IMG/VR virus record: IMGVR_UViG_2671181094_000006
Length of the DNA: 18,188 bases
Source: a virus
Taxonomy: Duplodnaviria > Heunggongvirae > Uroviricota > Caudoviricetes
Direction: 5' to 3' (one strand)
A program made the position numbers and the translations under genes. Below the pieces are notes generated by a model. The model had not been told where the DNA came from, did no database searches, and worked only from the letters and a program-made list of their open reading frames with translations. Positions 755 to 18,188 of this stretch are shown one piece after another. Within the stretch, counting starts at the first letter, position 1. Every line of letters begins with the position of its first letter.

Positions 755-1294
755 TTAATCCATGAGGCTGTTCAGTGCTTGCTCAACACTTTCATACTTC
801 TGCGTAGTTGGTTTACCTGTTGCGTTTTTAACCATTGAGAACAAAACCACCTCGCCGCTTAGGTCTGAAACACCAGTTGACTCTAAATACGGCAATAATT
901 CTTTCTCATAGAACTCAATTTCTTTTAGTAGCATTTCATCAGGCCTACCAGCCCAAGAATTACGCTCCGGGGACTTTCCACGTTTTATAGAGTAATTAAG
1001 CGAAAATTCTTTATTTTCATATTTGAACTCAACTGCACCATCACAACCAAAGAAGCTTCCTGTGAGTTTTGAGAAATCAATGAGAGTATCAAGGCCGCCG
1101 TTATAAGTGGCTTTCAACTTAGGAGTCTGGCCTGTAATTGTAAATCCTTTAGATTTAAAAAATTCCAAAACATCTTTCTGAATAGCGGTAGCAGCATCAT
1201 TTATTTGTTTATTCAACAACTCGCGCCGAGGAGCGCTGAATTCTTCAATTTTTGCTTTAAGATCTTGTAGTTTCATTTTGTTAGCTAATGACAT
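755..1294 (-). CDS. Hypothetical protein (179 aa), AT-rich orphan at the hpt-proximal island end
   Basis: The ORF in the track is 755-1369. I chose the ATG at 1294 (MSLANKMKLQDLK...) because AAGGA lies 5-6 nt upstream. It is visibly more AT-rich than its neighbours. I recognise no family. Confidence 0.7.
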   Translation of the reverse strand: MSLANKMKLQDLKAKIEEFSAPRRELLNKQINDAATAIQKDVLEFFKSKGFTITGQTPKLKATYNGGLDTLIDFSKLTGSFFGCDGAVEFKYENKEFSLNYSIKRGKSPERNSWAGRPDEMLLKEIEFYEKELLPYLESTGVSDLSGEVVLFSMVKNATGKPTTQKYESVEQALNSLMD

Positions 1295-1547
1295 ATAAAT
1301 TCCTTGTATATCCAGAGTAATAGCTGTGCATAGTCTATGCGATTTCATCCTACTGCTATAAAACATCAAATTCCATAAACATAACCATCAATTAGTTATA
1401 AATGCCTCGATGTTGAATGCGTCCCCCATACTCAACCGGGAATGGGCTGAGCACATTTATCATGACTGTGACCACCAGCCATGACGGCGGATTGTCATGA
1501 ATTACTAATGTATGATAGCACTGTCATACAATAAGGAATCTCCCACT

Positions 1548-2095: not shown

Positions 2096-2201
2096 GCTAT
2101 ATCTTCCTGCTCTATAGGCTCACCGGCTACGCCCTGAGCATCGTTATAAAAAGCCAGCCCCGGAGGGCTGGAATAACAGGAGCCCGCTGGCACACTTTGC
2201 T

Positions 2202-2789
2202 TTAATCGGTATCGTCGGCCAGGGCATACAGCAACGAAGGGATCACTCTCCGCATGGCTGTTTCTTCGGTTTCATCGCTCATGAGAGTCAGGGTGTAATC
2301 CCGGCACTCGTAAATCACATCATATGCAGACAGGCCGAACGCGCCGCCCGCAATGATCTGCCCAATTTCAACATCTGGCGTTTCAACAATCGACAGCCGG
2401 TAGCCGCCGAACGTCACAGGAGGGTTATAAGGCCCTTCGCTTACAAACAGCTCTACGGCCTTTGCAGCAACCTGGGCTCGTTCGTCCGGGTCCACCCCGG
2501 ACACCTTACCGGCACCTGACACCATGATGCGCTTAATCTCCGCAACACTCATTTCCACCAGCGTATACCCCTGCACCTCACCAGCTGGAGCAGGCTTGGT
2601 TTTACCCCTGGCATTCTTCGTACGCGGGTCACTGGCGCTGCGGTATCGTGCCAGATAAGTATCACAGGCCTCCTGGTCAATCTTCCCGTCAACCCGCGCC
2701 GGAAATCCTTCATGACTCTCCCAGTTATACAGTGCCTGCCGGCTCATTCCGGCATGTTTTGCGTACTGGCTGACGCTCATTAGTGACAT
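2202..2789 (-). CDS. Nu1-like (small-terminase-type) HTH protein; candidate packaging-redirection (Rpp-like) or small terminase subunit
   Basis: The ATG at 2789 has AGGAG 7 nt upstream. The N-terminus MSVSQYAKHAGMSRQALYNW...FP resembles the lambda Nu1 N-terminal winged HTH (KKQLADIFGASIRTIQNWQEQGMP). A repeat field lies immediately upstream, as cosB does for Nu1. Confidence 0.7.
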   Translation of the reverse strand: MSLMSVSQYAKHAGMSRQALYNWESHEGFPARVDGKIDQEACDTYLARYRSASDPRTKNARGKTKPAPAGEVQGYTLVEMSVAEIKRIMVSGAGKVSGVDPDERAQVAAKAVELFVSEGPYNPPVTFGGYRLSIVETPDVEIGQIIAGGAFGLSAYDVIYECRDYTLTLMSDETEETAMRRVIPSLLYALADDTD

Positions 2790-2826
2790 AATTTTTCTCC
2801 TGCCTCATTGTCACCGGCTGGCCAGT

Positions 2827-3033
2827 GTGTCAACCCGCCGGCGGGAAACTGTCAATCAAACGTCAAGGGATCAACCGCTTGACACTTTTTTCTGTCAACT
2901 TGACACTTTTCGGGCTGAAAGTGTCAATCAAACTGTCAATCAAAACTTTCACGAATTCCCCTGCATCACGCGCCGCCTCTGGACCTTAACAACCTGACAA
3001 CAAAAAAGTGTCAAGTGTAAAGTGTCAATCAAA
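2827..3033 (-). repeat. Repeat field upstream of the Nu1-like gene; candidate cosB-like binding sites or a promoter cluster
   Basis: Four exact same-orientation copies of TGTCAATCAAA lie at 2850, 2922, 2934 and 3023. Extra TGTCAA copies lie at 2828, 2893 and 3009. Inverted TTGACA copies lie at 2879 and 2900. A TGTCAAcTTGACA palindrome spans 2893-2905. A perfect 12-bp palindrome CCCGCCGGCGGG spans 2834-2845. Confidence 0.55.
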
Positions 3034-3137
3034 TTGAAAACCTGCAGCTACAAAAACACTGCGGCGCGCAATGCCCGTGCCTTACAAAAGTCTCAGGAAG
3101 GACCCATTTTTTCTGAGGGCCATTCCATAGTTATCAC

Positions 3138-3563
3138 TTAATGAACTTCCGGCATCACAGGCCATTCAATATCTGGGGCATCATCAGGGTTAACACGACT
3201 GAGCAGAACGGAGTATTTTTCCCAGTGTTCCAGTCGCGTTTTTTCATCCAAGGTAGCCATTCCGTATTTCACAGCACGCGCTAAAGGGACGATAACGTCC
3301 TCAGCCTTTGTACGTTGCCGCTCTTTTTCAGCCCCAGCCAGCCTGGATAACTGTGCTTTGGTCTGTGGAGGTACATCGACCCACGAGGGCAAGCCATCAG
3401 CCCCTACCCCCCTTTGCTTACCTTCTGGTGGAACCCTGGTGAACTCGTGAAAAACGTTATCACTGACTGCTATAAGGTCCGCTGGTAGAGAATTGTTGTC
3501 CCGATAAGCTGGTAATAATTCATCAGGGTAAAAACACGCCGTTGACGCACTAAAATGATACAT
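3138..3563 (-). CDS. Tail fibre assembly chaperone (Tfa family)
   Basis: The start MYHFSASTACFYP is typical of Tfa proteins. The C-terminus HWEKYSVLLSRVNPDDAPDIEWPVMP matches the conserved Tfa tail (W.KYRVLLNRVD...APDIEWP). The start lies 2 nt after the fibre gene stop. Confidence 0.85.
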   Translation of the reverse strand: MYHFSASTACFYPDELLPAYRDNNSLPADLIAVSDNVFHEFTRVPPEGKQRGVGADGLPSWVDVPPQTKAQLSRLAGAEKERQRTKAEDVIVPLARAVKYGMATLDEKTRLEHWEKYSVLLSRVNPDDAPDIEWPVMPEVH

Positions 3564-3565
3564 GA

Positions 3566-4099
3566 CTATTCCCCTATAGCTAACCATCCAAAATTATCTG
3601 CATTACCCGAACTGCCGCTGATCCAGCCATATGCACGGAAACCGGAATTGGAATCATTGGTTACGGACACGTAACGATTTCCATCTGCGTACTTCGTAGC
3701 AACAATAGCAATAGCCCGCTTAGGAAAAGGTATCGGATACTGAACATTACCTGATGGTGAATTAATAGTGGCAGTTCCCATTTGAACAATAATATTTTTC
3801 TTTTCACCTGATGGTGTTCGGGTAGGAATAATACAGTAACCCTGTGAAGTAAGGGCACCTACGATGGGTTCAGATAGAAGGGCGGTGATCCTCAACTCAT
3901 CAATAACTTCGTTTAACTGACCATCATTTTCAGGCTCAAGCTGGCGGCCAGAACCCTCTACCACGCCCACCATCTCACGCTGCCAGGTATTAAAAATATC
4001 GGCAACAAGAATTGTTGGTGATACCCCATTAGCAACATTACCTTGTGTAAATTCCCCATTACTATCAGCAGTATCAGTGACTGAACTTATCTTACGCAT
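3566..4099 (-). CDS. Short tail fibre / receptor-binding tip protein (177 aa)
   Basis: The N-terminal motif FTQGNVANGVSPTILVADIFNTWQREMVGVVEGSG..L.....QL resembles the conserved tail-fibre motif (T...A.WLN..QEEL.NVI...G). The C-terminal GYCIIP...IIVQMG...VQYPIPFP...FGWLAIGE resembles gp53-like tail-fibre C-terminal domains. A Tfa gene follows directly. Confidence 0.8.
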   Translation of the reverse strand: MRKISSVTDTADSNGEFTQGNVANGVSPTILVADIFNTWQREMVGVVEGSGRQLEPENDGQLNEVIDELRITALLSEPIVGALTSQGYCIIPTRTPSGEKKNIIVQMGTATINSPSGNVQYPIPFPKRAIAIVATKYADGNRYVSVTNDSNSGFRAYGWISGSSGNADNFGWLAIGE

Positions 4100-4127
4100 T
4101 ATGCATATCCTTTAATTGATATCTTCG

Positions 4128-4595
4128 CTATATAGAAAGCGTATCTGCCATACTCACCGGCTCGATATACTTCTCAAGCGCTAACAGAGCGGCGTTAAAA
4201 CCAGCACGATAGCCGTTTGTGTCACCGTTAATCATGCTGTGTTGAAATGCCGCCATGTTCTGGTCTTCGGCATCAAGGAACTCCCAGCCAGGATAAACTT
4301 TCTCCATAGCCCGCCGGGTAAAACGACTGAGCTGGCGAGCGCTGCCTTTTAGTCTGGCAATAGCCTTCTGATGTGGGATCCCTTCCGCGATAAGATGAAA
4401 TGCCTGTATCGGATTTTGTTTTGCCGCTTTGCTCACCGCTATCAGATGCGCATCAGAATGGGGGCATTCAGGGAGTTCCTCTTCTTCAAGCGATTGCTGA
4501 AGCTGGTGCATACGCTGCATACGGCGCCCGGAAAAGCCATATGCATGCGCATCAGGTTGCTGCTTGTTGAGGTGCTGAAAGTTCATAACGCTCAT
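4128..4595 (-). CDS. Hypothetical protein; paralog of the central domain of the 4607-5383 product
   Basis: It shares a ~95-aa domain with the upstream gene: AVS..AK.NP ... F....ME...P.WEF.D.E ... D.NGY.A....AL.AL.K..EP. The start may instead be the ATG at 4586 (MNFQHL), which has better GGAG spacing. Confidence 0.75.
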   Translation of the reverse strand: MSVMNFQHLNKQQPDAHAYGFSGRRMQRMHQLQQSLEEEELPECPHSDAHLIAVSKAAKQNPIQAFHLIAEGIPHQKAIARLKGSARQLSRFTRRAMEKVYPGWEFLDAEDQNMAAFQHSMINGDTNGYRAGFNAALLALEKYIEPVSMADTLSI

Positions 4596-4606
4596 CTCCG
4601 CAGCTC

Positions 4607-5383
4607 TCAGAGAGGAACCTGCGATTTTAGGAGTTCGGCTTCTCGTGCCGGCCCTTCAATCTTGCCATTCACCCGACGGGTATCCCCCGGCAGGCTCACA
4701 CCAGATGCCCGGATACGATCGTTACGGCGTGCAGCAGCCTGCGCGACCTCTTCCCGGTACTCTTCGTCAGCCTTACGGCGAGCATTCACATTCTGAGGTG
4801 ACATAGGGTCATAGTCGTTTTGCATCTTAGATGCCTTGCTGGCTAATGCCTTAATCTCGTCTTCTGTCAGAGGCTCTTCCATCTTCTTCAGCGCCTTCAG
4901 AGCGCTACTCTGGGCAGCAGAGTAACCATTTGCATCACGGTTCTGCGTTGAAAACGTTAGCGCCGAGCGAGCTTTCTCTTCGTCATCCTGAAATTCCCAG
5001 GTCGGGTCATTCTCTTCCATAAACTTTTGGGTAAACACAGAAAGCGCCATCGGCGACGATGCCAGTTGCAGCTTTATTTTCTTCGAAGAAAGTTCCGTTT
5101 CCTTCAGCAAACGAACCGCCAGAACCGGGTTATTTTTTGCCTCCGGGGAAACCGCGACATTGTGGCCGCGACTGTGCTGCTTAGGTCTGGCGATCCGGGC
5201 GTCGTCACTGTCCAGTTTCAGTGGCACATTCCCGTTATCAGACTCGCCTTTCGTTTTGGTTTTGCCTGACAGATGCGAGAAATCAAACATGGATGGGTTT
5301 TCCTCAGATAGTTGGGGCTGTTTTTTCTTATCTTTCGTACCGAACGCTCTTAGCGCCCATGCGGGTAACGTCATTAACGGCAT
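4607..5383 (-). CDS. Hypothetical protein (258 aa), charged and Lys-rich, with a domain paralogous to 4128-4595
   Basis: The ATG at 5383 has GAGGAAA about 7 nt upstream. The alternative ATG at 5290 would remove the overlap with the 66-aa ORF. Confidence 0.75.
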   Translation of the reverse strand: MPLMTLPAWALRAFGTKDKKKQPQLSEENPSMFDFSHLSGKTKTKGESDNGNVPLKLDSDDARIARPKQHSRGHNVAVSPEAKNNPVLAVRLLKETELSSKKIKLQLASSPMALSVFTQKFMEENDPTWEFQDDEEKARSALTFSTQNRDANGYSAAQSSALKALKKMEEPLTEDEIKALASKASKMQNDYDPMSPQNVNARRKADEEYREEVAQAAARRNDRIRASGVSLPGDTRRVNGKIEGPAREAELLKSQVPL

Positions 5384-5528
5384 GGCATGCTTTCCTCTGG
5401 TTGGCGATTATCCGGCGGAGCCACATGAGTTTTTTCTTCTGCTTTCTGAACAGGCGCTCTCTCTTCGCCGCGGCAAACCATTCCGGTAACACCCAGCTTG
5501 TTTTGCTCCTGCACTCCTGGCACGGCAT
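5328..5528 (-). CDS. Small basic protein (66 aa), hypothetical
   Basis: Its ATG overlaps the stop of the upstream RHH-like gene in TAATG (5526-5530), which suggests translational coupling. It is very Arg/Lys-rich. It overlaps the annotated start of the next gene by 56 nt, so one of the two starts is uncertain. Confidence 0.5.
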   Translation of the reverse strand: MPCQECRSKTSWVLPEWFAAAKRERLFRKQKKKLMWLRRIIANQRKACHAVNDVTRMGAKSVRYER

Positions 5529-5704
5529 TACTTTTTATTTGTTTCATGTCTACTAATCCCCTGACGTAAAAGGTGACGCGCCAGCTCCTGAATACTCGGG
5601 GCTGCGCCTACGGTAGAACGTCGGCATTCATCCTCACGGAGGCGCTGTAAACCTTCGAGAATCGGCTGATCAACAAGAATCGGCTTTTTGTTAGTGACTG
5701 CCAT
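5528..5704 (-). CDS. Small ribbon-helix-helix-like protein (58 aa), first gene of the tail-fibre operon; not in the supplied ORF track
   Basis: Hand translation gives MAVTNKKPILVDQPILEGLQRLREDECRRSTVGAAPSIQELARHLLRQGISRHETNKK. A strong SD, AGGAGG, lies 7 nt upstream of the ATG at 5704. The strand-helix-helix pattern is typical of CopG/Arc proteins. Confidence 0.6.
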   Translation of the reverse strand: MAVTNKKPILVDQPILEGLQRLREDECRRSTVGAAPSIQELARHLLRQGISRHETNKK

Positions 5705-5929
5705 TTCCTGACCTCCTGATACTGGTTAAACGTACATACTTCTTCTGTATGGGGTTAACTTATGATCAATAAAATAAATCGTCAAGATAAAATATTTTAA
5801 TTAAAAGGGTTGCGGACTACATGAGGGGGTACTGATTGCGTTACAAAATGGAGGGGAAAGTTAAGTAGCCATTCCTCACCGCTTCTTATTGTATGATAGT
5901 GCTATCCCACAATAAGGAACCTGCCAGCC

Positions 5930-6289
5930 ATGAGAATGACCAGCCGCAAAAAAGAGATACTCAGCTACTTTGAACCGGATAACCGCGATTGGGTAACAGG
6001 TGAGATTGGTGCGCCGCCGTTCGATGTGTCGGGTGTGGCCTACCTGCTTCATGGCATGGGATCATTCGGTAAACGCCACCAGCTCGAATCAACCCGGCGT
6101 ACGCTCGAAAGCATGGTTGCCGGTGGACTGCTTGAGCGAATGACAGTGTATGAATCCCGTCAGGTACGGCGCGGCGGTGAAACCAGCGCAACAGTCGTGC
6201 GCTACGGTTTACCGGGACAGTGTGCCGTTGTGCGAGATAGTGGCGGCGCTGATAACGCAATACCAGGTGAATACATGCGGGTCAGTTAA
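5930..6289 (+). CDS. Winged-helix DNA-binding protein, module B (119 aa); paralog of 1548-1907
   Basis: MRMTSRKKEILSYFEPDNRDWVTGEIGAPPFDVSGVAYLLHG... The ~40-bp leader and operator (TGTATGATAG..CACAATAAGGAA) are conserved with copy A. Confidence 0.8.
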   Translation: MRMTSRKKEILSYFEPDNRDWVTGEIGAPPFDVSGVAYLLHGMGSFGKRHQLESTRRTLESMVAGGLLERMTVYESRQVRRGGETSATVVRYGLPGQCAVVRDSGGADNAIPGEYMRVS

Positions 6290-6824
6290 GAGCCTGCAAT
6301 CTGTCGTTGATGCGGCTCAGGTCGTAAACCCGGCGTTCAATATCCAGCATCAGGAAATTGTGGATCTCGGCCTGCTCAGGATTATCAGACTCTCTGGCCT
6401 GTAATAGCAATTCATTGTATCCATGCAAGCCGCCTGAGTTTTCCGCCGGGGTGGTGCCTTTCCCACGCAGGCAGCTAATGGGCTGATTACTCGTATCGTG
6501 TGTTTGCTTCTCCAGCACAATGACGCAATCCCACCAGTCGCCAAAGTCATACGTGTAAACCAGCTTGTCACCCTCATTCTGGAGCGCTGCCCATAGTGGT
6601 GTGATTGCCGCGTTACCCATGCTTTCACCCTCACCCCATACGCGATACTCGCTACCTAGATCACCTTTACGGCCTTTCTCGAACATATACAGATGTTCGT
6701 CATTCCAGCCAAAAGCCAACTGGATCACCGCGTGAAGTTCACTAAAGGGGATTTGCTCTGGAACCAGCACACGCCGCCATATTGGTGGTTTGCTGTCTCG
6801 GATGGTTATCTTTAGCTGGTACAT
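6282..6824 (-). CDS. Plasmid pRiA4b ORF-3-like (PF07929-type) protein, 180 aa
   Basis: From the ATG at 6824, MYQLKITIRDSKPPIWRRVLVPEQIPFSELHAVIQLAFGWNDEHLYMFE matches the family signature (vyqLkv.L....PpIWRr..Vp....L..LH..Iq.a.GW.d.HL..F). The track ORF starts further upstream, at 6872. The 3' end overlaps the convergent 5930-6289 gene by 8 nt. Confidence 0.8.
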   Translation of the reverse strand: MYQLKITIRDSKPPIWRRVLVPEQIPFSELHAVIQLAFGWNDEHLYMFEKGRKGDLGSEYRVWGEGESMGNAAITPLWAALQNEGDKLVYTYDFGDWWDCVIVLEKQTHDTSNQPISCLRGKGTTPAENSGGLHGYNELLLQARESDNPEQAEIHNFLMLDIERRVYDLSRINDRLQALN

Positions 6825-6944
6825 GCAAATCCTGAATAAATGCGAATCGGAAGGATAACGATACTGACGCACTCACAATTCTGTAAAGGTGAATAAAGGT
6901 AATTTGCTTAATACGCATAAGTTACATGTGGAATAATCCCATAT

Positions 6945-7130
6945 CTACCTGCGCGGCGCTGGCTTCTTCCACTGGTAGGCAGGCGCTCGCATCATCTCCC
7001 CGAACCGTTTACGCCGGACTGTATCAGCTTCAATAATACGTTCCATCTCCCGAACCTCTACCGGGGTAAGCTGGTGGCCTTCATGCTCCATTTTGGCAGC
7101 GGTCAATAAAGCTATTTCGCGTGGTGTCAT
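6945..7130 (-). CDS. Small protein (61 aa) with a conserved C-terminal APAYQWKKPAPRR tail, module B
   Basis: ATG start with AAGGG upstream. The C-terminus is shared with the 1904-2095 product. Confidence 0.65.
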   Translation of the reverse strand: MTPREIALLTAAKMEHEGHQLTPVEVREMERIIEADTVRRKRFGEMMRAPAYQWKKPAPRR

Positions 7131-7337
7131 ACGCCATACCCTTTGGAAGGATGAAACACGCCCGGATTAAATTTTATTTTTCGCGGGTATAAACATTCGA
7201 TGAGGCGGGCAGTGCTTAAGGCTCAGGATTGCAGAGATTTGGCCTCCCCCTCCCGGTGATAGTTTATTGCTTGATGTGGACGGCTTGCTATATTGGCGGA
7301 GAATGCAAATTGTCGCAGAAGTCTATCCCGCTCCCTG

Positions 7338-7363
7338 ACGCCCCGTGCGGGCGTTTTGCTTTT
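7338..7363 (+). terminator. Plus-strand-oriented intrinsic terminator
   Basis: The stem is ACGCCC (7338-7343) / GGGCGT (7349-7354) with a 5-nt loop, followed by TTTTGCTTTT. The U-tract is present only on the plus strand, although the adjacent coding genes are on the minus strand. Confidence 0.45.
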
Positions 7364-7973
7364 ACAAAGTCAGGCCAATGCCTCTGGCTGCTTTCCCCGT
7401 CTTACGCTCAATCACGCCCGTGATTCTATCTACTACCGGACTGAATGCCTGCCAGTAAGCCATCTCCATTGCTGACAACTCTGCCCGCTTCCTGTCAAAC
7501 GTAGCCCAGCGCATCCCCTTTGGTTTTGGGAACATGCGAATATCATTAAACAGGTTATTGGTAAGGTCATTGTTGCCCCATATCGCGCATCGCTGCTGGC
7601 GTATCTTCATTCGCATCCTGTCCAGTCTGTCGGCGCTCTGGCTTTTATAGTGGAGTTTCCAGCATCCCCGGCAGCCAATATCTTTTTTGCCGATATACAG
7701 CTTCGCTACCCGCTTTATGCAGTGGGGACAGACGTACCATTCCCGCACACCATACCCGGCTTGTGTGGTCGTGGTTCTGATTGCCCGTGTAACGCCGTTG
7801 ATTGTCATGGCGTAGCTGTCGGCTTGCCGGAAGGTATAAAACGTTCCGCTTTCGGTCTGGGTATAAAGCTGCGTCCCCGGTTCGGCGTCCGCCAGCCTGC
7901 TACGCATGTGCGCAAGGAATGGCAACCCTATGCGGGGCAGGTCGGTGGTATAGCTGCGTGTTCTGCCTCTCAC
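7362..7973 (-). CDS. Zinc-ribbon protein (203 aa), hypothetical
   Basis: The GTG start at 7973 has AGGAGG 7 nt upstream. The motif is CPHC-X15-CRGC (WYVCPHCIKRVAKLYIGKKDIGCRGCW). Confidence 0.8.
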   Translation of the reverse strand: MRGRTRSYTTDLPRIGLPFLAHMRSRLADAEPGTQLYTQTESGTFYTFRQADSYAMTINGVTRAIRTTTTQAGYGVREWYVCPHCIKRVAKLYIGKKDIGCRGCWKLHYKSQSADRLDRMRMKIRQQRCAIWGNNDLTNNLFNDIRMFPKPKGMRWATFDRKRAELSAMEMAYWQAFSPVVDRITGVIERKTGKAARGIGLTL

Positions 7974-7993
7974 TGGCTGGCCTCCTGTGAATT

Positions 7994-8405
7994 ACTGCGA
8001 ATCAAACTGCGAATGCGCAAAAATGAATACGAAATAATATGCGTATTTTACTGTAAATTGCGCACCAGTTTTGCAATTTCACATCAATAAAGCCAGTAAC
8101 CGCGCGGGTTGAGGATGGTTTGCGCATTGGTATCCGTTTCGTTTTGCGCAGATTTTTTGTGAACTGCGCAAATCGCATTGCCGCCGTTAGAATCCGTCAG
8201 ATGGTACGCACGCTGAATGCGCAGTTTTGCCGCGTACCTGACTGCGTACTGCGAACCAGTGGCGCGAACCAGAATATTATGGACAACCTAAATCACGTTC
8301 TGGCTTCCAGCCCGCGACTGGCGCGGTTCTCTCTTCATATCGGCTTTGAGTCTGTCCAGTACAGTCCAGAATTTACAGCCGTTTTAGTGCGAACATTACT
8401 GCGAA
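7994..8405. repeat. Dense array of TGCG(A/C)A motifs filling the perC-like / zinc-ribbon intergenic region
   Basis: Eleven exact copies start at 7996, 8008, 8014, 8059, 8121, 8145, 8165, 8218, 8250, 8388 and 8400. One-mismatch variants start at 8040, 8205, 8243 and 8263. Six copies extend to ACTGCG.A. Paired units 12 bp apart sit at both ends of the array. GCGAACCAG is repeated at 8251 and 8264. Confidence 0.65.
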
Positions 8406-9284: not shown

Positions 9285-9541
9285 GGTGGTTCAGGTGGTT
9301 CAGTGGTTCAGTACCCCTCTAGGCCGCGCCATCTCTGGGTTTTGCTGAACCACCTTTTAAATTTATCTGGTGGTTCAGTCGCCCTTCTTGGTGGTTCACT
9401 GCCAGCCAGTGAAAATAATCCGTTTCTCTCTGGTGGTTCAAAATACCCGTTTGGTGGTTCAGTGGTGGTTCACTTTCTTACAAAAAAACATTATAAATCA
9501 ATAACAATTACTTACTGAACCACTGAACCACCTGAACCACC
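9285..9541. repeat. Iteron-type replication origin of the island
   Basis: There are twelve copies of (T)GGTGGTTCA. A triple tandem at 9285-9311 and its exact 27-bp reverse complement at 9515-9541 bracket five direct copies (9369, 9390, 9432, 9453, 9464) and one inverted copy (9346). An AT-rich tract spans 9476-9514. The field lies between the primase-helicase and ssb genes. Confidence 0.8.
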
Positions 9542-9567
9542 ACAAAAAACCTCGCACGTGAAAAAGA

Positions 9568-12345
9568 TTATTGCTCTGGCTGGCTTTCCTCCCCATCCGG
9601 CAGGAATTGCAAAACGTAAACGTTAATCTGCCTCCCCTGAATGCGCGGGCTTTTCCTCTGAAATTTTTTTCCGTCTGCCGAAGGGGTAAGCATCCCCGAT
9701 TCTTTCAGGACGCGGGCCACCTGCTGCCTGTTAAACCCCTTAGCAATATCCTTATCGAAAGTGTCGGGGAACGTGTAAAACGTTATCGGTGAATCGTCAT
9801 GATTTCCGCGCTGCCTGTATCCAGCCAGATTATGAATCGGCAGGCTGGCGGGGTCGTAAGGCAGCGGCGCGAATCGACTCAGGCCATAGGCATTTAAAAA
9901 TGCCTCCGCCTGCTCGATGATCTGCTGGTGCTCTTTGTTCCCCGTGCCGAACTCTTTTAGCCATGCGTTATAGGCGTGCTGTATCGCATCCCGGCACGTT
10001 TGAGCATCCCAGCCAGTAACCACGCCACCCATCAGTAAAGCGGCCTCCAGAATGGCAAATCTTGCCCCTACACGGTGAACCTGTTCCCCATAGTCGGCAG
10101 GAATTAGACTGCGCCAGCGGGCCTCACACTCACGAACGGCATCAATCGCCTGTTGCTGGTGGTCTGAAAGCCATCTGATCCACTCCCTCCCGGCAGCGCC
10201 ATGATGGTTCTGGTAAGCGTCTTTCAGCGCGTCGGCGTGGTCTCTCCCTGTCTGGTACTCATGAAAGCGCACCGCCTTACTCAGCGGGATATTCAGCAGT
10301 CGCACCAGTTGCCCCGCTTTTGTCTTGCGTCCTGCGGTGGAGATGAACGTTTCTAAATCCATTTCCCCGGTGCTGATTGCCACGGTGCGCCAGCGTTTCA
10401 GATCCCGGTTGCCTCCTTCCTTTGCTCCCTGCAATTTCCCCACGCCGTTAAACAGGGCATAGGCAGACTGAGCAACGCTTATCGGGTCTGCGCCCTGTCC
10501 GACTTCATCCAGTGGCATCAGCCCGTCATTGTGGGCGGCGGCCTCGTTTATCAGCCCCAGCGCCGTTCCGTACCACGTCAGGCGCAAGGCATCAGGGTTG
10601 CCATAAAGACTGCTCGCCACGTTCTGCGTGGTTGTTTTCCCGGCGCTCGATTGCTCGTAAAAATGAATCCCGAAGCCGTCACGCTCCGCCAGCCCGATTA
10701 ACGGTGCTGCAAGTGCGGCGGCAATGCCTGTCATCATCGCGTAGTTACCGTATGCCAGACGCGCAACACTCTTACGCCAGCTCTCTGAGGTTCCCGCCAC
10801 GGTGTACCCGGCAGCGGCAGAACTGCGGCCACTGAATAAAACGGGTTGTGCAGGTGCGCCGATAATCTCCCCGTCCGGCATGATGTATGCCCCGCACTGC
10901 CAGCCAGTAGCGTGAGCAACACGCCACAATTCACGTGAGCCGCTACGCTGTAACCAGTCAGCCAGAATCGCCCGCAAGCTGCTTTTGGTGGTGACGTTAA
11001 CCCCGCCCGCTTTCAGGGTGCGCCAGCCTTCGCGCTCCCCGATATCAGCCAGGGGGATAGCCGCTGTTGTCGGTATGCCTGCGCCAAAGGCCAGCCAGCG
11101 TAATATCAGATACTGATCCTTGTCGTCCCGCCCGGTGCCGATAACGTCCATCGGTGAGGCCAGCCAGCTTTCATTGTTGATAATCTCGCCGCTTTCCTTG
11201 TCCACTTTAGGCGTGATCCAGTAAACGCCATCTTTGCGGCTCTCAATGCGGGGTTTTAGCGGGTCTTTCTCTGGCTGGTCAGTTTTACCGCCCTCAATGG
11301 CCTGTAGTTGTGGTTTCACGCATTCCCCCTGCGGCTGGTACATCGAATCATTAAACGCAGCCGTAGCGACTTCCAGCCCGTGTTGCTGGTGGTAGTCGTT
11401 CCAGTCAGCTTTGCTGTCAGTCGGTGGCAGCGATACCCAGCCAGCCACGGATAAAGCCGCTTTCTCTGCGGCCTCCTTCCCGATGTTGGTGGCTCCGGTT
11501 TCGGAGGCTGCTGTAGGGTGGTCGTTATCTGCGGCGATAATAATTTGCGACTGCGGGTGTTTCCGGCGCATTACTCCGGCAACGTGGATCAGGTTCCCGG
11601 CGTCAATTGCCGCCACTGTGAGCGCGTCAGGCCGCATCTGGTGAACGGACAGGGCGGTAGCCAGCCCCTCGGCAATCACGACGCTTTGAGGCCGTTCCAG
11701 CGCGTTTACGGCGTAATATGCCCCGCGCTTTGCCGATCCCTTAATGAGTCGCTTTTCTCCCTGCGGGGTGATGGTCTGCGCGGCTGTGACTGCGCCGGAT
11801 TCATCCACCAGCTCCAGCAATAACGAACCATCGGGCATAAGCGGGTATTTAAACCCGGTCAGCCCTTTTGATTGCAGGTACTCAGATTCTCCCTGTATGG
11901 ATCTCAGGCGCATTCCGGTATACAGACGGGCAAACGTAGCCCTTCGCTGATCTGCGTCCTCTGCTGCCTGTTTCTGGCGCTCCTGCTCACGCTGCTGGCG
12001 GTCTGCGGCTAACTGCCTCTGTCTCTGGCTGGCAGCGTCTGGTGCTGATTCTGCGGCCCGGTAATCAATACCCAGCACATCAGCGGCAAGCTGTGCCGCC
12101 TCCGTGGTGTCGCAGTTGTTCACCTTCTTAATCAGGTCTAAGCCATCGCCCGCGCCGCACTGGTTGCAGATAAAGCTGCCGCGCCCGTTGTCGTCGAATC
12201 TGAAACGGTCTTTCCCACCACATGCAGGGCAGGGGGCATGGCGGCGCGATGAATCAGGAACGTCGATAGACAATCCGGCCAGCACATAAGGCCATCGCCC
12301 TGCTGCGGCGCTGGTCACTTCGCGGATAAGGTCGATATTACGCAT
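9568..12345 (-). CDS. Primase-helicase replication protein (zinc-binding domain + Toprim + P-loop NTPase), P4-alpha / PICI Pri-Rep type
   Basis: 925 aa. Zinc motif CPACGGKDRFRF...CNQCG. Toprim residues VVIAEGLATALSV and IIIAADNDH. Walker A SSAGKTT and Walker B LMPLDEV. GGGAGGT SD. Confidence 0.95.
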   Translation of the reverse strand: MRNIDLIREVTSAAAGRWPYVLAGLSIDVPDSSRRHAPCPACGGKDRFRFDDNGRGSFICNQCGAGDGLDLIKKVNNCDTTEAAQLAADVLGIDYRAAESAPDAASQRQRQLAADRQQREQERQKQAAEDADQRRATFARLYTGMRLRSIQGESEYLQSKGLTGFKYPLMPDGSLLLELVDESGAVTAAQTITPQGEKRLIKGSAKRGAYYAVNALERPQSVVIAEGLATALSVHQMRPDALTVAAIDAGNLIHVAGVMRRKHPQSQIIIAADNDHPTAASETGATNIGKEAAEKAALSVAGWVSLPPTDSKADWNDYHQQHGLEVATAAFNDSMYQPQGECVKPQLQAIEGGKTDQPEKDPLKPRIESRKDGVYWITPKVDKESGEIINNESWLASPMDVIGTGRDDKDQYLILRWLAFGAGIPTTAAIPLADIGEREGWRTLKAGGVNVTTKSSLRAILADWLQRSGSRELWRVAHATGWQCGAYIMPDGEIIGAPAQPVLFSGRSSAAAGYTVAGTSESWRKSVARLAYGNYAMMTGIAAALAAPLIGLAERDGFGIHFYEQSSAGKTTTQNVASSLYGNPDALRLTWYGTALGLINEAAAHNDGLMPLDEVGQGADPISVAQSAYALFNGVGKLQGAKEGGNRDLKRWRTVAISTGEMDLETFISTAGRKTKAGQLVRLLNIPLSKAVRFHEYQTGRDHADALKDAYQNHHGAAGREWIRWLSDHQQQAIDAVRECEARWRSLIPADYGEQVHRVGARFAILEAALLMGGVVTGWDAQTCRDAIQHAYNAWLKEFGTGNKEHQQIIEQAEAFLNAYGLSRFAPLPYDPASLPIHNLAGYRQRGNHDDSPITFYTFPDTFDKDIAKGFNRQQVARVLKESGMLTPSADGKKFQRKSPRIQGRQINVYVLQFLPDGEESQPEQ

Positions 12346-12359
12346 TCGTGTTACCTCCC

Positions 12360-12986
12360 TCAGTGCGCCGCTGGCATTTCAGGCAAGCCGTTTTCATTCA
12401 GATCGGCAATGAATCCATCGTGTAGCTCTGCCAGCGTTTCACGCCCGAACGGGGTCAATTCCCCGCGCTCCGTGTCGATCATGGCCTGATAAAAAACAAT
12501 GGCGTTCGCTGTTCCCTGCTCAATGCCGTAGCGCTCAATCATTGCGCCCTCCATGTTGTTAGCCATCGCCAGACGTTCCGCGAACGGGTAAACCACAATC
12601 CCCGCCGTGCCATTTGAATAAAACGTCACCAGCGACGATTTGCCGTCATCCTCCGTGATGGTGGTTGTGCCGTTTTCGCGCTTCATCTCAGAAATGAACG
12701 TCGCAGCAATCAGCCAGCGCCACATAGTGACGTTATGCTGCGCGGTAAAGTCGAACCAGCCACGCGCCCCGCCATCAGCAACGGCAAAATGTATGGCGTA
12801 TCCGATATCTGGCTTGTCGTCGTACTCTCCGGCGTCAAGGCCGTTCACGGCGCTCTCGTAGCTGATAAGAGCAACCAGCTCAAATCCCCCGGCATCATTG
12901 CGGGTCATGATATTGACGCCGTGCGGTGTGGCTTCGGCGCGTAATACGTCGTCATTTCCCGGTGTGAATTTCTCTACGTTGCTCAT
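12360..12986 (-). CDS. Hypothetical protein (208 aa) immediately upstream of the primase-helicase
   Basis: Its ATG overlaps the previous stop (ATGA). It sits 14 nt before the primase gene. I recognise no family. Confidence 0.8.
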   Translation of the reverse strand: MSNVEKFTPGNDDVLRAEATPHGVNIMTRNDAGGFELVALISYESAVNGLDAGEYDDKPDIGYAIHFAVADGGARGWFDFTAQHNVTMWRWLIAATFISEMKRENGTTTITEDDGKSSLVTFYSNGTAGIVVYPFAERLAMANNMEGAMIERYGIEQGTANAIVFYQAMIDTERGELTPFGRETLAELHDGFIADLNENGLPEMPAAH

Positions 12987-13195
12987 GCTTTGCCGTCCAG
13001 ACTCAAATCCATATCAACTAACTCGCCTTCTACTGAATCCATCAGCTCGGGGATACCATCCAGAAGGGTAATGACTGCGCCAATAAGATGATCCGTGCCG
13101 CTATCTTTTTTAATCGGTGCTTCAAGCCAAAGAGAAAGAACTTGCTGCGCTTGCTTGATACGGCAGGCTGAATCAATCAGGGATAACTTGCTCAT
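12983..13195 (-). CDS. Small hypothetical protein (70 aa)
   Basis: ATGA start/stop overlaps at both ends. It is preceded by the conserved junction GGAGGGCAGCGCATGA. Confidence 0.65.
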   Translation of the reverse strand: MSKLSLIDSACRIKQAQQVLSLWLEAPIKKDSGTDHLIGAVITLLDGIPELMDSVEGELVDMDLSLDGKA

Positions 13196-13452
13196 GCGCT
13201 GCCCTCCCGATACTCGCGCATCTTCGTTAGTTCATCAGCCAGGCGATTAACTTTGCGCTCGGTTCTAATGGTTGCGCATCTCAATTCGGTGATTAATGTC
13301 GCAAGTCTGGCACCATAAAGCGGATTGGCGGCACGTAATGGCCCGTCCAGATAAAGATTCCATAACTCAAGCAATTCACTGGCATAGCGCACCGCTGCCG
13401 TTGCGTCACCTGTCGGGATTGTTTCTGGTTCAATTACGGCGACTGTATTCAT
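13192..13452 (-). CDS. Small hypothetical protein (86 aa)
   Basis: ATGA overlaps at both ends. It ends in EGSA, like the upstream gene. The conserved junction sequence provides the SD. Confidence 0.65.
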   Translation of the reverse strand: MNTVAVIEPETIPTGDATAAVRYASELLELWNLYLDGPLRAANPLYGARLATLITELRCATIRTERKVNRLADELTKMREYREGSA

Positions 13453-13712
13453 GCGCTGCCCTCCGCATCAATACGGGCTATATCGACAATCGCCAGGACT
13501 TTATCCAGCCAGCAATGCACGATGGCCGCCTGCTCATCGTCGAGGCGTGGTGCCAGCTCAGTCATAACGTAAGCCAGACCATTACGGGCGCGGGTCATGC
13601 GTTCCGCGGTACGCTCTGCCAGCGTAAAATCTTCCGGGTAGGGTTGTTCACGGGATAACATCGCCTCGGCCTGAAGCACTGCAGGATGGAGATAGATAGT
13701 GTGAATGTTCAC
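13449..13712 (-). CDS. Small hypothetical protein (87 aa)
   Basis: The GTG start overlaps the previous stop (GTGA). AGGAGG lies upstream. It ends in EGSA. Confidence 0.62.
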   Translation of the reverse strand: MNIHTIYLHPAVLQAEAMLSREQPYPEDFTLAERTAERMTRARNGLAYVMTELAPRLDDEQAAIVHCWLDKVLAIVDIARIDAEGSA

Positions 13713-13888
13713 GCTGCCACCTCCTGAACACGGGTGATGCGAACGTGTTTATAACCGCCCTGCTGCGCCAATAACTGAGCGGTCGATTTGGCTGTATCCG
13801 GGCTGGCACCGGTCAGGGTGTAGTGAATGCCGACGGTGTTACCGCGCTTATTAACCGCGTATCCGTCAATCTGGAAGGTTTTACGCAT
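13709..13888 (-). CDS. Small hypothetical protein (59 aa)
   Basis: I chose the ATG at 13888 (MRKTFQIDGYAVNKRG...), with GGAGG 6-7 nt upstream. It overlaps the Icd-like stop by 8 nt. The upstream part of the track ORF is Cys/Arg-rich junk. Confidence 0.6.
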   Translation of the reverse strand: MRKTFQIDGYAVNKRGNTVGIHYTLTGASPDTAKSTAQLLAQQGGYKHVRITRVQEVAA

Positions 13889-14084
13889 GACGCACCTCCG
13901 ACACCGGCAGGCGAGCAGCCAGAGAGAGGATAAAGTGCGGCGCCAAAATGCGGCGGGCGTCACGTTCGGTTGCGGCCTCGACGGACAGGCGGCAGGGAGT
14001 GGCCTTTTTGTCGTGACGGTTGAGCGCCAGAAAGCGCCAGATGTAGTTGTTCCGCCCTTGCGGGTGTGTGATATGATCGTTCAT
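13881..14084 (-). CDS. Icd-like (host cell division inhibitor-like) small protein, 67 aa
   Basis: This is the C-terminal segment of the spurious 391-aa ORF. MNDHITHPQGRNNYIWRFLALNRHDKKATPCRLSVEAATERDARRILAPHFILSLAARLPV matches, from memory, the Icd-like family pattern (YIWRF.A......A.PC...VEA..E..AR..LAPHFILS.AARLPV). The ATG at 14084 has a GAGG SD. Confidence 0.72.
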   Translation of the reverse strand: MNDHITHPQGRNNYIWRFLALNRHDKKATPCRLSVEAATERDARRILAPHFILSLAARLPVSEVRHA

Positions 14085-16961: not shown

Positions 16962-18188
16962 TTAATCTCTATTCGCTACAGGTAACAGAACCACATTTTT
17001 ATGATTACCCGCAAGAAGTTCTAAACGTTCATGCCATTTGTTCAGCGCATCCAGCTTCTCCGGCAAGTACAGGCTACGGTTATATATAGCCATGACGCCC
17101 GGTAGAGCATGACCCAGCAGCAACTCTACAATATGCGGTGCTATGCCCATATTGTTTAACCCCGTGGAGAACGTGCGCCGCAGATCGTGAAGTGTCCACG
17201 GCTCGTTATGATGGAAATCTTTAAAAAGCCGTCGCCCTTTCAAAGATACAGCTTGCCGGGTGCGCTCTTCTCCCAGCAGCAGGCCTGTTTTACCCGTCTC
17301 GCGTTTTAACTCTTCCAGCCACGGGCGTATAGCTTCAGGGATTGATCTCACGATTTTCTCGCGGGTTTTGCTGTGCTCTTTCGGGACTGTCCAAATCCAC
17401 GAGGTAAAATCCCACTCCGACCATCGAGAGAGGCGAACTTCCATCGTTCGAGCGCCAAACAGCACCAGCATTTTGAGAAGACGTGAATAATACGGCTGCT
17501 GATCATCGCTGTCTGTGCAGCGCCATACATCGGCCAGCTCGCTATCTGACAATACGCGGTCACGTTGACCGGATGGCTGGCCTACATCCTGAATGGTGAG
17601 AAAGGCTAGAGCATCACTGGCGGCATAGCGGCGAACCTTGCAGAAGCGTAACGCCTGTTTAGAAATCTGGAACATGCGGCCGGCGGTCATGGGTTTGGTC
17701 AGATTTATTTCATCAAAACAGGCCACCCAATGACGGGTTTCACATCTGGTGAGGGGATAACGACCAAGGCGCGGGTAAATATGCTTGCGTAGCTGTGCCC
17801 TTACCAGCTCCTCATCGCTGCGCTTTCTCCTGGCGTAGTTCACCAGCCAGTATTCGAGAGCATCCTGTACTGTCACAGGTTTAAGCGTTTCTTCGGTGCT
17901 CAGTTCAAGCTCTGTTTTTGGATCAAGACCACCAGCCAGCCACTGGCGACACTTTTCCCGCTTTTCTCTCGCCGCTTTTAGCGACAAATCCGGGTAACGG
18001 CCAAGCGTTAAACGTTCGAGTTTGCTACCCCTTCCGCCCAATCGGTAAGCGAACACCCAGCTAACGTTACCTTGCTTCGAAACCTTAATGCTCAGTCCTT
18101 CACCATCGGCAATCATGATCGGTGCTTCACGCTCAGAACCCTGCAGCGCTTTTAGCTTTTTGTCGCTCAGTTTGTTTGTACCAGCCAT
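16962..18188 (-). CDS. P4-type tyrosine integrase (full length; the start codon is the last three bases of the window)
   Basis: N-terminal arm-type domain (LSDKKLKAL...GEGLSIKVSKQGNVSWVFAYRLGG...LGRYPDLSLKAAREK). Catalytic residues ARTMEVRLSRW, HDLRRT, LLGH, and Y in AIYNRS. Confidence 0.95.
   Translation of the reverse strand: MAGTNKLSDKKLKALQGSEREAPIMIADGEGLSIKVSKQGNVSWVFAYRLGGRGSKLERLTLGRYPDLSLKAAREKREKCRQWLAGGLDPKTELELSTEETLKPVTVQDALEYWLVNYARRKRSDEELVRAQLRKHIYPRLGRYPLTRCETRHWVACFDEINLTKPMTAGRMFQISKQALRFCKVRRYAASDALAFLTIQDVGQPSGQRDRVLSDSELADVWRCTDSDDQQPYYSRLLKMLVLFGARTMEVRLSRWSEWDFTSWIWTVPKEHSKTREKIVRSIPEAIRPWLEELKRETGKTGLLLGEERTRQAVSLKGRRLFKDFHHNEPWTLHDLRRTFSTGLNNMGIAPHIVELLLGHALPGVMAIYNRSLYLPEKLDALNKWHERLELLAGNHKNVVLLPVANRD

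Follow-up and report, generated by a model that had tools for sequence, protein, structure and literature searches.

A tail fibre and chaperone cassette in the variable cargo slot of a PICI-like Escherichia coli satellite, and its possible use in helper tails

The DNA analysed here, referred to as the window, is a stretch of 18,188 nucleotides (IMG/VR record IMGVR_UViG_2671181094_000006), which carries a PICI-like phage satellite of Escherichia coli, integrated beside hpt. The flanking DNA identifies the host as E. coli, whereas protein names would have suggested K. pneumoniae. One end of the island is occupied by a tyrosine integrase (16962-18188), which has Arm-DNA-bind_3 and Phage_integrase domains. 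The other genes include an AlpA-type regulator (Phage_AlpA, 4e-10), a 925-residue primase-helicase with Zn_Ribbon_Prim, Toprim_3 and DUF927 domains (phrog_1139, 9e-180), an SSB, a Bro-N protein and a TerS/Rpp-like wHTH protein whose gene adjoins a group of iterons. Pfam and PHROGs searches of the window gave no genes for capsid, terminase, portal or lysis, and the gene content of the island suggests a satellite without capsids. Baseplate genes are also absent from the window, and the tail fibre described below is not part of a tail or baseplate operon. The original prediction, that the fibre and its assembly chaperone Tfa are the only virion structural genes, was borne out by the same searches of the window.

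The locus of interest consists of six minus-strand open reading frames (ORFs) running from 5704 to 3138. All are present as predicted, with a TAATG junction at 5528 and gaps of 11 nt (4596-4606), 28 nt (4100-4127) and 2 nt (3564-3565). Upstream, on the same strand, reading of the sequence reveals a putative promoter at 5757-5785, composed of TTGACG (5785-5780), a 17-nt spacer and TAAGTT (5762-5757), which falls below the threshold of a consensus scan. This is followed by a Shine-Dalgarno sequence, AGGAGG (5717-5712, minus strand), and by the first gene (5528-5704, minus strand), which encodes a conserved, 58-residue protein. The module also starts with a homolog of this protein in Klebsiella, Raoultella, Pectobacterium, Edaphovirga, Xenorhabdus and Serratia, and the dN/dS of the gene is 0.04-0.18. 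The protein is possibly DNA-binding. It had been described as RHH-like, and read by eye, its sequence could fit a strand-helix-helix arrangement. The RHH assignment itself found no support in three approaches: Pfam gave no match for 8 homologs even at E<=5; a PDB profile search returned nothing RHH-like, its single, marginal hit being a designed helical repeat protein; and in hhalign the probability for an Arc-family protein was 0.2%.

The second gene of the operon was predicted to be a 66-residue basic ORF that starts at the TAATG junction (5328-5528, minus strand). This ORF is real, but it is probably the wrong frame, and the second gene is probably a 57-residue ORF instead (5374-5547, minus strand), which overlaps the 58-residue gene by 20 nt and the 258-residue gene by 10 nt. 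The 57-residue frame is chosen by RefSeq/PGAP and by the collection gene calls in nearly all relatives, and it is the only frame to keep a weak peptide match in a divergent relative (L048, E=0.004). The 66-residue ORF, by contrast, has no TAATG start in L001, and divergent relatives have nothing that matches it. Codon-position counts do not discriminate between the two frames, and the 57-residue gene is missing from several relatives (L002 and L018-L020).

Next are two genes encoding a 258-residue protein (4607-5383, minus strand), which is composed of a disordered N-terminal region of ~70 residues and a helical domain, and a 155-residue protein (4128-4595, minus strand). The common domain that had been noticed in them is confirmed by BLASTP, with 42% identity over 104 residues (E=3e-21), making the two proteins paralogs. 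In relatives, the 155-residue gene always comes after the 258-residue gene. No known fold, chaperone or defence protein was matched by either paralog, a profile search against 1.84 billion representatives recovered only their own family, and a PDB sequence search with the 258-residue protein produced nothing useful. ART-PolyVal was considered for the latter and rejected, as the Pfam match (E=0.017) was below the cut-off and structure gave it no backing. The suggestion that the paralogs serve as fibre adaptors is unlikely, since they occur in relatives where a tape-measure gene or nothing at all takes the place of the fibre. Instead, they are core genes of the satellites. Conversely, one relative (L014) has a fibre and Tfa without the paralogs.

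The fifth ORF (3566-4099, minus strand) encodes a 177-residue tail fibre, in which an N-terminal module (residues 1-66) is joined to a Gp53-like_C tip. Its identity as a fibre was upheld by Pfam (Gp53-like_C, 1.7e-10), and its N-terminus matches those of several PHROG tail-fibre families. The sixth (3138-3563, minus strand) encodes a 141-residue Tfa, the identity of which is equally well supported (Caudo_TAP, 1e-30; phrog_188, 6e-39). The tip and the Tfa encoded 2 nt downstream form a pair that is also present in prophages of Serratia. In Serratia marcescens prophages, a fibre 79% identical to that of the island is located directly after Phage_Mu_Gp48, and the Tfa following it is 71% identical to the island Tfa. 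More distant are the fibres of an E. coli prophage (45% identical) and of phage BZS1 (162 residues, 39% identical); in BZS1 and in E. coli DY612, the fibres at this location have 162-170 residues.

The protein had been taken for a mini fibre having neither a long shaft nor a baseplate-anchor region. It is not truncated or abnormal in form, and the point on the anchor was wrong. Directly after Mu-gp48/YmfQ, phage BZS1 and prophages of Serratia and E. coli have fibres of 162-177 residues, and this is therefore the normal, full length for this phage class. As these resident fibres of the same size follow gp48, the 177-residue protein is a complete fibre for the Mu-gp48 tail type. Residues 1-66 correspond to the conserved module of fibres encoded after Mu-gp48/YmfQ: an alignment of satellite and prophage fibres contains 14 invariant and 12 near-invariant positions, and the similarity stops at the module junction, near residue 66. 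Over residues 1-72, the identity of the island fibre to gp48-following fibres is 33-68%. Residues ~1-66 are probably the baseplate anchor.

A search for this N-terminus in other fibres had been proposed; the module is shared with prophage fibres, and phage records contain no close homolog of the island fibre, the best matches being 39% identical over the full length and 51% for the N-terminus. A scan of IMG/VR with the fibre gave 6 loci, none of them close except for one Serratia-type copy, and did not identify a Klebsiella helper. A PDB sequence search with the fibre returned nothing useful. The possibility that the segment is a near-identical fragment of a resident prophage did not hold where it could be tested, as in the contexts that were read the exact protein was found in satellites only. 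Here, complete E. coli genomes contain no similar DNA except for the first 119 nt of the fibre gene, which is present in another satellite, and a nucleotide search of the operon DNA against 50,697 phage records produced no match.

Downstream of Tfa are the iterons, TTGACA[CG]TTT in both orientations (2824-3028), which separate it from a gene for a conserved, 195-residue protein (2202-2789, minus strand). With one mismatch allowed, there are 14 iterons in the window; 8 are within these 205 nt, 7 of the 8 being exact, and the stretch is conserved in relatives. The cluster is a candidate packaging or binding site. The 195-residue protein has an N-terminal winged-HTH resembling TerS/Rpp; a PDB sequence search with it gave nothing useful. 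After this gene there is a terminator-like hairpin of 7 pairs (6 G-C) followed by a T-run (2154-2171, minus strand), which is the first convincing hairpin of this kind downstream of the operon start.

Alignment with relatives shows that the fibre and Tfa occupy a variable cargo slot (3112-4155). In one relative the slot is empty (L002) and in another it holds a tape-measure gene (L018); the alignment of each with the window breaks off after 3111 and resumes at 4156. The GC content of the slot is 0.44-0.49, as against about 0.52 for the island. Across Enterobacterales, the core order is the 58-residue gene, the 57-residue gene where present, the 258- and 155-residue genes, the slot, and then genes of 195 and 63 residues. 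The slot contains a fibre with Tfa, a different fibre, a tape-measure protein (TMP) or nothing, and since it is empty in many members, the cargo is dispensable for the satellite family. Slot fibres with the same N-terminus and a Gly_rich_2 tip are present in E. coli (L001) and Hafnia (L027). The TMPs are 609-635 residues in length with a transglycosylase domain, and that of Raoultella is 86% identical over 624 residues to the TMP of a prophage with a Mu-type baseplate. In addition, a fibre with Tfa is found in related satellites with other arrangements (L014 and L029). The 58-residue gene, the two orphan paralogs, the TerS/Rpp-like protein and the iterons constitute a conserved satellite module that extends from Escherichia to Xenorhabdus.

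The exact 177-residue protein is present in 169 collection blocks. The 24 contigs that were read comprise 8 distinct contexts, all of them satellites and using two attachment sites, and these satellites differ in their primases and defence cargo. Over the family of relatives, the attachment sites are hpt, mug/rpoD and yicG/dinD. The operon DNA is 98% identical between the E. coli island and K. pneumoniae satellites, and the presence of a near-identical module in the two species suggests movement between genera. Between satellite copies, the fibre has a dN/dS of 0.06-0.12 and Tfa one of 0.12-0.16. Core satellite genes have values in the same range, and both fibre and Tfa are under purifying selection. 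One copy of the fibre cassette, in K. quasipneumoniae, is frameshifted.

A selected, complete cassette, of the type that belongs to Mu-type baseplates, in what looks like a capsid-less satellite makes the supply of a fibre by the satellite itself the best reading. This keeps, by comparison, the central part of the original prediction, that the island may supply its own receptor-binding tip, and leaves the adaptor proteins and the RHH control without support. We consider the chances to be about even that the complete fibre and Tfa, which derive from the likely helper class, are a tail part provided by the satellite for incorporation into helper tails. The likely helpers would be temperate myoviruses with a Mu-type (gp44-gp48/YmfQ) baseplate. 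Upon induction, the tightly packed operon would be transcribed and Tfa would fold the Gp53-like, trimeric tip. The 66-residue N-terminal module would then dock on the gp47/gp48 wedge of the helper, either replacing the helper's fibre or sitting beside it, so that particles containing satellite DNA would adsorb via a receptor of the satellite's choice.

The satellite could plausibly gain entry into cells that are closed to the helper's own fibre. Such cells could be helper lysogens, the surface of which may be altered by the O-antigen acyltransferases that are encoded beside the fibre in Mu-baseplate prophages. A second possible gain is spread across genera. As tails are diffusible, the satellite fibre would also decorate helper virions, and the advantage in adsorption would not be exclusive to the satellite. 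Docking compatibility is unproven, because in the co-resident Mu-baseplate prophage that was inspected, in the genome of one relative, the N-terminus of the fibre is only 35% identical. Prophages of this type occur in 3 of 7 E. coli genomes with sibling satellites, against a base rate of 66/5,426, a co-occurrence that carries little weight because the strains look clonal and their satellites are without the fibre. With less confidence, and as a tentative extension, there may be a widespread enterobacterial family of PICI-like satellites with a dedicated and precisely bounded slot for helper tail parts, in which a fibre with its chaperone, or a TMP, leads to chimeric tails and to a host range or entry route chosen by the satellite, and which satellite finders would miss or reject.

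Several other explanations were weighed against a fibre supplied for helper tails. In one, a satellite factor, possibly the 258- and 155-residue paralogs, blocks a tail part of the helper and the copy in the slot is a resistant substitute, leaving chimeric tails as the only ones to form, as PLE11 does with Rta and its own TMP (PMC12987554). The alternation of the slot between two tail parts, fibre or TMP, would fit this, and so would the orphan paralogs directly upstream, where phages have their tail chaperones. However, the TMP of PLE is about 20% identical to that of ICP1, whereas the satellite TMP, being 86% identical to its prophage counterpart, is hardly what one would expect of a resistant variant. 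Furthermore, the paralogs are found with empty slots, L014 dispenses with them while retaining fibre and Tfa, and they resemble no known fold, chaperone or defence protein, all of which renders this explanation unlikely. A less probable one still is that the fibre poisons the baseplates of incoming or induced phages, or acts as a decoy, to the protection of the host population. Inhibitors of tail assembly (Tai) and defence hotspots do occur in PICIs, and in relatives there is defence cargo nearby, but the known defence cargo of relatives is in another hotspot, which has the primase/SSB genes on one side and the operon on the other, and PADLOC, run on all of the operon proteins, gave no defence match. 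A full, conserved fibre with its chaperone is neither a truncated nor a divergent inhibitor, relatives can have a full TMP in its place, and blocking tails would also keep the satellite from being transferred; we rate a role in defence or exclusion as the least probable of the alternatives.

It is also conceivable, albeit improbable, that the cassette is passive cargo, acquired by recombination with a co-replicating helper and either useless to the satellite or serving as a reservoir for fibre exchange. This would account for a slot that is variable and often empty, for the GC content below that of the flanks, for the frameshifted copy and for contents that mirror prophage gene pairs. Against it, purifying selection at the level of core genes holds across lineages of satellites whose dS reaches about 1.5, and the exact protein is retained in many satellites that have otherwise different modules. 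Capture was independent and recurrent, at precise, common boundaries, and the operon couples its genes tightly.

In the usual description, satellites accept the tails of the helper unchanged and consequently, their host range is assumed to be that of the helper. The PLEs (2025-26) provided an example of a satellite exchanging internal parts of the tail. If the proposal made here is true, a satellite bringing its receptor-binding fibre would control adsorption itself, which bears on how islands with defence and virulence genes cross between strains and genera. It would also bear on detection, where the presence of tail genes excludes an element from the PICIs, creating a blind spot for such islands. 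In SatelliteFinder, the PICI model lists tail genes as "forbidden", with a tail set of 80 profiles, and the island, having a tail fibre and Tfa, is at odds with this rule, at least if those profiles cover the two families. In addition, the comparison defines a conserved, uncharacterised satellite module, and compact natural cassettes (about 1 kb) of fibre and chaperone, with docking modules that are defined, could be of use in retargeting transducing particles.

The layout of integrase, AlpA and primase is that of Gram-negative PICIs such as EcCICFT073 with Rpp (PMC6739421, PMC6092414), which are described as being without tail genes. As in those elements, a small wHTH protein structurally like TerS/RppC is encoded beside a repeat-rich site; unlike Rpp (144-153 residues), the island protein has 195 residues and the two do not match in sequence. 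The N-terminal module of the fibre and the pairing with Tfa are shared with myoviruses having a Mu-type baseplate (Serratia phage BZS1, Citrobacter phage phiNP and SfV-like phages), as are the use of Gp53-like or Gly_rich_2 tips and their modular exchange at about residue 66. The phage gene follows gp48 in the tail operon, whereas the island gene follows two orphan genes. The cassettes of these phages include invertible fibre segments. Tai differs in being a single gene, next to pri, that blocks the tail assembly of other phages; it lies in the hotspot by pri and the island fibre lies elsewhere.

In engineered P2/P4 pseudotyping, a swapped fibre provided in trans retargets satellite or cosmid particles with helper tails (PMC9942202, PMC9594776); that is a laboratory construct, of which the island would be the natural equivalent. 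The cf-PICIs make their own tail-less capsids, which join the tails of different phages (bioRxiv 10.1101/2025.02.11.637232). Theirs is likewise a strategy that changes which cells the particle enters, as is proposed here, but they borrow whole tails, whereas the island, with no capsid genes, would alter a borrowed one. Closest in logic are the PLE satellites of Vibrio cholerae, in which TMP, TAC and BhuB of the satellite combine with helper parts into chimeric tails (Nature 2026, PMC12987554). Both are satellites without capsids that bring their own forms of helper tail parts, which in PLE are built into otherwise helper-made tails and here would be; in relatives of the island, the slot can hold a tape-measure gene. 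The differences are that the island has no TMP, TAC or baseplate hub and no homology to PLE proteins, its relatives having the TMP only, and that satellite family, host and helper class are unrelated to those of PLE. Finally, the PLE parts are internal or hub proteins, about 20-41% identical to those of the helper, and PLE hijacks the helper's fibres; what the island carries is a receptor-binding fibre, 79% identical to the prophage version, together with the chaperone for it, and the sibling TMP is at 86%.

Searches with Pfam and PHROGs confirmed that the 177-aa protein (3566-4099, minus strand) is a fibre with a gp53-like tip, giving a match to Gp53-like_C (1.7e-10), and that its N-terminal part matches the corresponding part of fibres in several PHROG families. 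The fibre gene is followed after 2 nt by that for Tfa (3138-3563), a Caudo_TAP chaperone (1e-30). The original prediction also held that the fibre lacks an anchor region. This proved incorrect, as phage and prophage fibres of the same class are similarly short and have the N-terminal module in common with it. Judged by its sequence, the 177-aa protein is whole and of a kind normal for one class of phages, not an anchor-less stub. The phage protein that matches it best is a 162-aa tail fibre encoded by Serratia phage vB_SspM_BZS1 (39% identity, with 99% of the length aligned), the gene for which lies directly 3' of a Mup48 homolog. Serratia marcescens prophages encode a fibre of the same length, 177 aa, with 79% identity to that of the window, and after it a 140-aa Tfa; the run of genes directly before the fibre is DNA_circ_N, gp44, gp45, gp46, Baseplate_J and Phage_Mu_Gp48. 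In E. coli DY612, a 170-aa gp53-like fibre with 45% identity to the window fibre comes directly after YmfQ.

The fibres of this class are modular. Only the first ~66 residues are common to the window fibre and the Gly_rich_2-tip fibres of Raoultella-type prophages (L013, L050), and the likeness to the fibre of Citrobacter phage phiNP is confined to the same residues. When 12 fibre N-termini were aligned, 14 positions were invariant and 12 near-invariant, with similarity stopping at about residue 66-70. As conservation ends here, the N-terminal module is the leading candidate for docking to the baseplate, a role proposed from synteny and modularity. A Mu-baseplate prophage of E. coli 1368KP (L053), co-resident with a sibling satellite, has a fibre N-terminus with 35% identity to that of the window and an invertible fibre segment (10785-13561) in the order fibre, Tfa, inverted Tfa plus gp53-like tip, and recombinase.

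The six minus-strand ORFs of the predicted operon (5704 to 3138) are present, with the junctions that had been described. The head of the module was thought to be an RHH-like protein, an assignment that no tool supported; the 58-aa product is a conserved small protein heading the module. The second gene was proposed to be a 66-aa basic ORF, which exists but is probably not the gene, the coding frame more probably being an overlapping one of 57 aa (5374-5547). PGAP and the gene calls of the assembly collection take the 57-aa frame, which overlaps the neighbouring genes by 20 and 10 nt and is the only one that has any peptide match, albeit weak, in the divergent relative L048. A codon-position test did not discriminate between the frames, and the small gene is absent from several relatives. 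Since spacing within the operon is tight (28 nt before the fibre, 2 nt before Tfa) and no convincing terminator was found in it ahead of 2171-2154, the cargo appears to lie in one transcription unit with the upstream genes.

Mapping of the window proteins onto about 40 related loci revealed a conserved order: the 58-aa gene, (57), 258, 155, a variable position, 195 and 63. Alignment of the window with two relatives, L002 with an empty slot and L018 with other cargo, breaks off after 3111 in each case and resumes at 4156, which defines the slot as 3112-4155. In this window, K. pneumoniae, Raoultella scottii and Logan contig L048, the slot contains a Gp53-like fibre and Tfa. In E. coli L001 and Hafnia L027 it contains a fibre with the same N-terminus, a Gly_rich_2 tip and no Tfa, an arrangement likewise found in the corresponding prophages. 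In sibling satellites of Raoultella, Pectobacterium and Acerihabitans (L018-L020, L022, L024/L025), the slot after the 155-aa homolog encodes a full tape-measure protein (TMP) of 609-635 aa that includes a transglycosylase domain (phrog_2276, 5e-75 to 7e-119); the Raoultella TMP and that of Mu-baseplate prophage L013 share 86% identity across the full 624 residues. E. coli L002, Edaphovirga, Rahnella, Morganella and the uncultured Enterobacterales MAG L026 have nothing or a small ORF. Both kinds of cargo, fibre and TMP, come from one class of temperate myoviruses, which makes these phages the natural candidates for the helper. The slot can take more than a tail part: in Raoultella scottii L017 the 155-aa homolog and the fibre are separated by an extra 154-aa gene (9295-9759), which has a weak PHROG match to an anti-repressor (Ant). 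In Xenorhabdus L029, fibre and Tfa are upstream of the module. Between Tfa and the 195-aa gene (2202-2789), eight TTGACA[CG]TTT iterons in both orientations occupy 205 nt (2824-3028); the stretch is kept in relatives from other genera and may serve as a packaging (cosB-like) or operator site.

The 258-aa (4607-5383) and 155-aa (4128-4595) proteins are indeed paralogs (42% identity over 104 aa, E=3e-21). Homologs of the 258-aa protein number 64, all lacking annotation, and range from Klebsiella to Xenorhabdus, Photorhabdus and Providencia; the 195-aa protein has 118. The paralogs had been suggested as fibre adaptors. They occur with a fibre, with a TMP and with an empty slot, and in Serratia liquefaciens L014 fibre and Tfa directly follow the 58-aa homolog with the paralogs absent, so they are core satellite genes and not fibre-specific adaptors.

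The window starts with hpt (1-537) and ends with a tyrosine integrase gene (16962-18188); between them it encodes AlpA, a Bro-N protein, SSB, PerC, a pRiA4b-ORF3 protein, several small unknowns and a 925-aa Zn-ribbon/Toprim/DUF927 primase-helicase; no capsid, portal, terminase, tail-tube or lysis genes were found in the window with Pfam and PHROGs. The flanking DNA is that of E. coli: two E. coli chromosomes match bases 1-2200 at 99.9% identity, and 5,425 of the 5,426 complete E. coli genomes contain a match to the hpt end (1-665), 4,392 of them at 99% identity or above. A K. pneumoniae island shares 98.0% identity with bases 3146-5868, and other E. coli islands share 98-99.5% with further segments. 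This makes the element a mosaic with an operon common to different genera, a pattern that, read from these identities, implies that satellites of different genera exchanged DNA recently. The mosaic segments are 1-2200, 3146-5868, 5556-8074 and 13449-13890, with 98-99.9% identity to E. coli in the hpt flank and some segments. A low-GC (about 0.38-0.40) 204-aa gene at the hpt end (755-1369, minus strand; phrog_14564) encodes a protein that recurs unchanged (100% identity) in E. coli L001 and at 45% identity in the divergent satellite L048. A divergent gene pair occurs twice, as 131 aa(+)/63 aa(-) at 1512-2095, its 63-aa gene belonging to the conserved module, and as 119 aa(+)/61 aa(-) at 5930-7130, where a pRiA4b ORF-3 family gene (6282-6872) separates the partners.

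The exact 177-aa protein is present in 169 blocks of the assembly collection, and the 8 distinct contexts shown (24 contigs read) are all satellites, with two attachment sites and DUF927 or D5_N primases. The locus does not look like the remnant of a resident prophage where this was testable, as complete E. coli genomes hold no DNA like the fibre gene except 119 nt (its 5' end) in another satellite, and the operon DNA has no match among phage records. That fibre and Tfa are passive cargo is improbable in our estimate; this is to be set beside dN/dS values between satellite copies of 0.06-0.12 for the fibre and 0.12-0.16 for Tfa (core satellite genes, 0.04-0.18, with dS up to about 1.5), and beside the only decayed copy seen, in K. 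quasipneumoniae AP022014.1 (L049 10001-10533), where a frameshift splits the fibre into 145- and 55-aa ORFs. A role of the pair in defence or as a decoy seems to us less probable still. The 8 contexts differ in the defence cargo that separates the replication genes from the operon (PP2C phosphatase plus kinase, AAA_15/21, TIR-SEFIR, M78 peptidase/HTH). In K. pneumoniae relatives (L005-L012, L049), differing defence-like cargo of these kinds lies between primase/SSB and the 58-aa gene, a position in keeping with the hotspot by pri that has been described for Tai in PICIs.

The favored reading, proposed from sequence and in our view about evenly balanced between right and wrong, is that upon induction the operon would yield fibre and Tfa, the N-terminal module of the fibre would dock on the gp47/gp48 wedge of the helper, and transducing particles would gain the receptor specificity of the satellite. 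In the prophages of this class, O-antigen or LPS acyltransferase genes lie directly beside the fibre, which suggests a surface modification that would exclude particles with the phage's own fibre. Those by the fibre genes of Mu-baseplate prophages and phages L013, L050, L052, L003 and L004 are of the Acyl_transf_3, OafA-type and serine acetyltransferase kinds. Helper-encoded acyltransferases would bar own-fibre particles from helper lysogens, a block that particles with a different fibre would escape; entry into such lysogens is the benefit proposed from this gene arrangement. A pair such as that of PLE11, in which an inhibitor is combined with a resistant replacement, is the least unlikely of the alternatives and is nevertheless doubtful.

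In open-access papers and preprints, no report was found of a satellite that encodes a receptor-binding fibre together with its chaperone. The Vibrio cholerae PLEs assemble chimeric tails from their own TMP, TAC and BhuB and hijack the fibres of ICP1 (Seed laboratory, PMC12987554); the same laboratory remarked on putative tmp genes in the capsid-forming cf-PICIs, and mycobacterial EPIPs likewise encode a TMP. In cf-PICIs, host range is altered by the joining of whole foreign tails (bioRxiv 10.1101/2025.02.11.637232).
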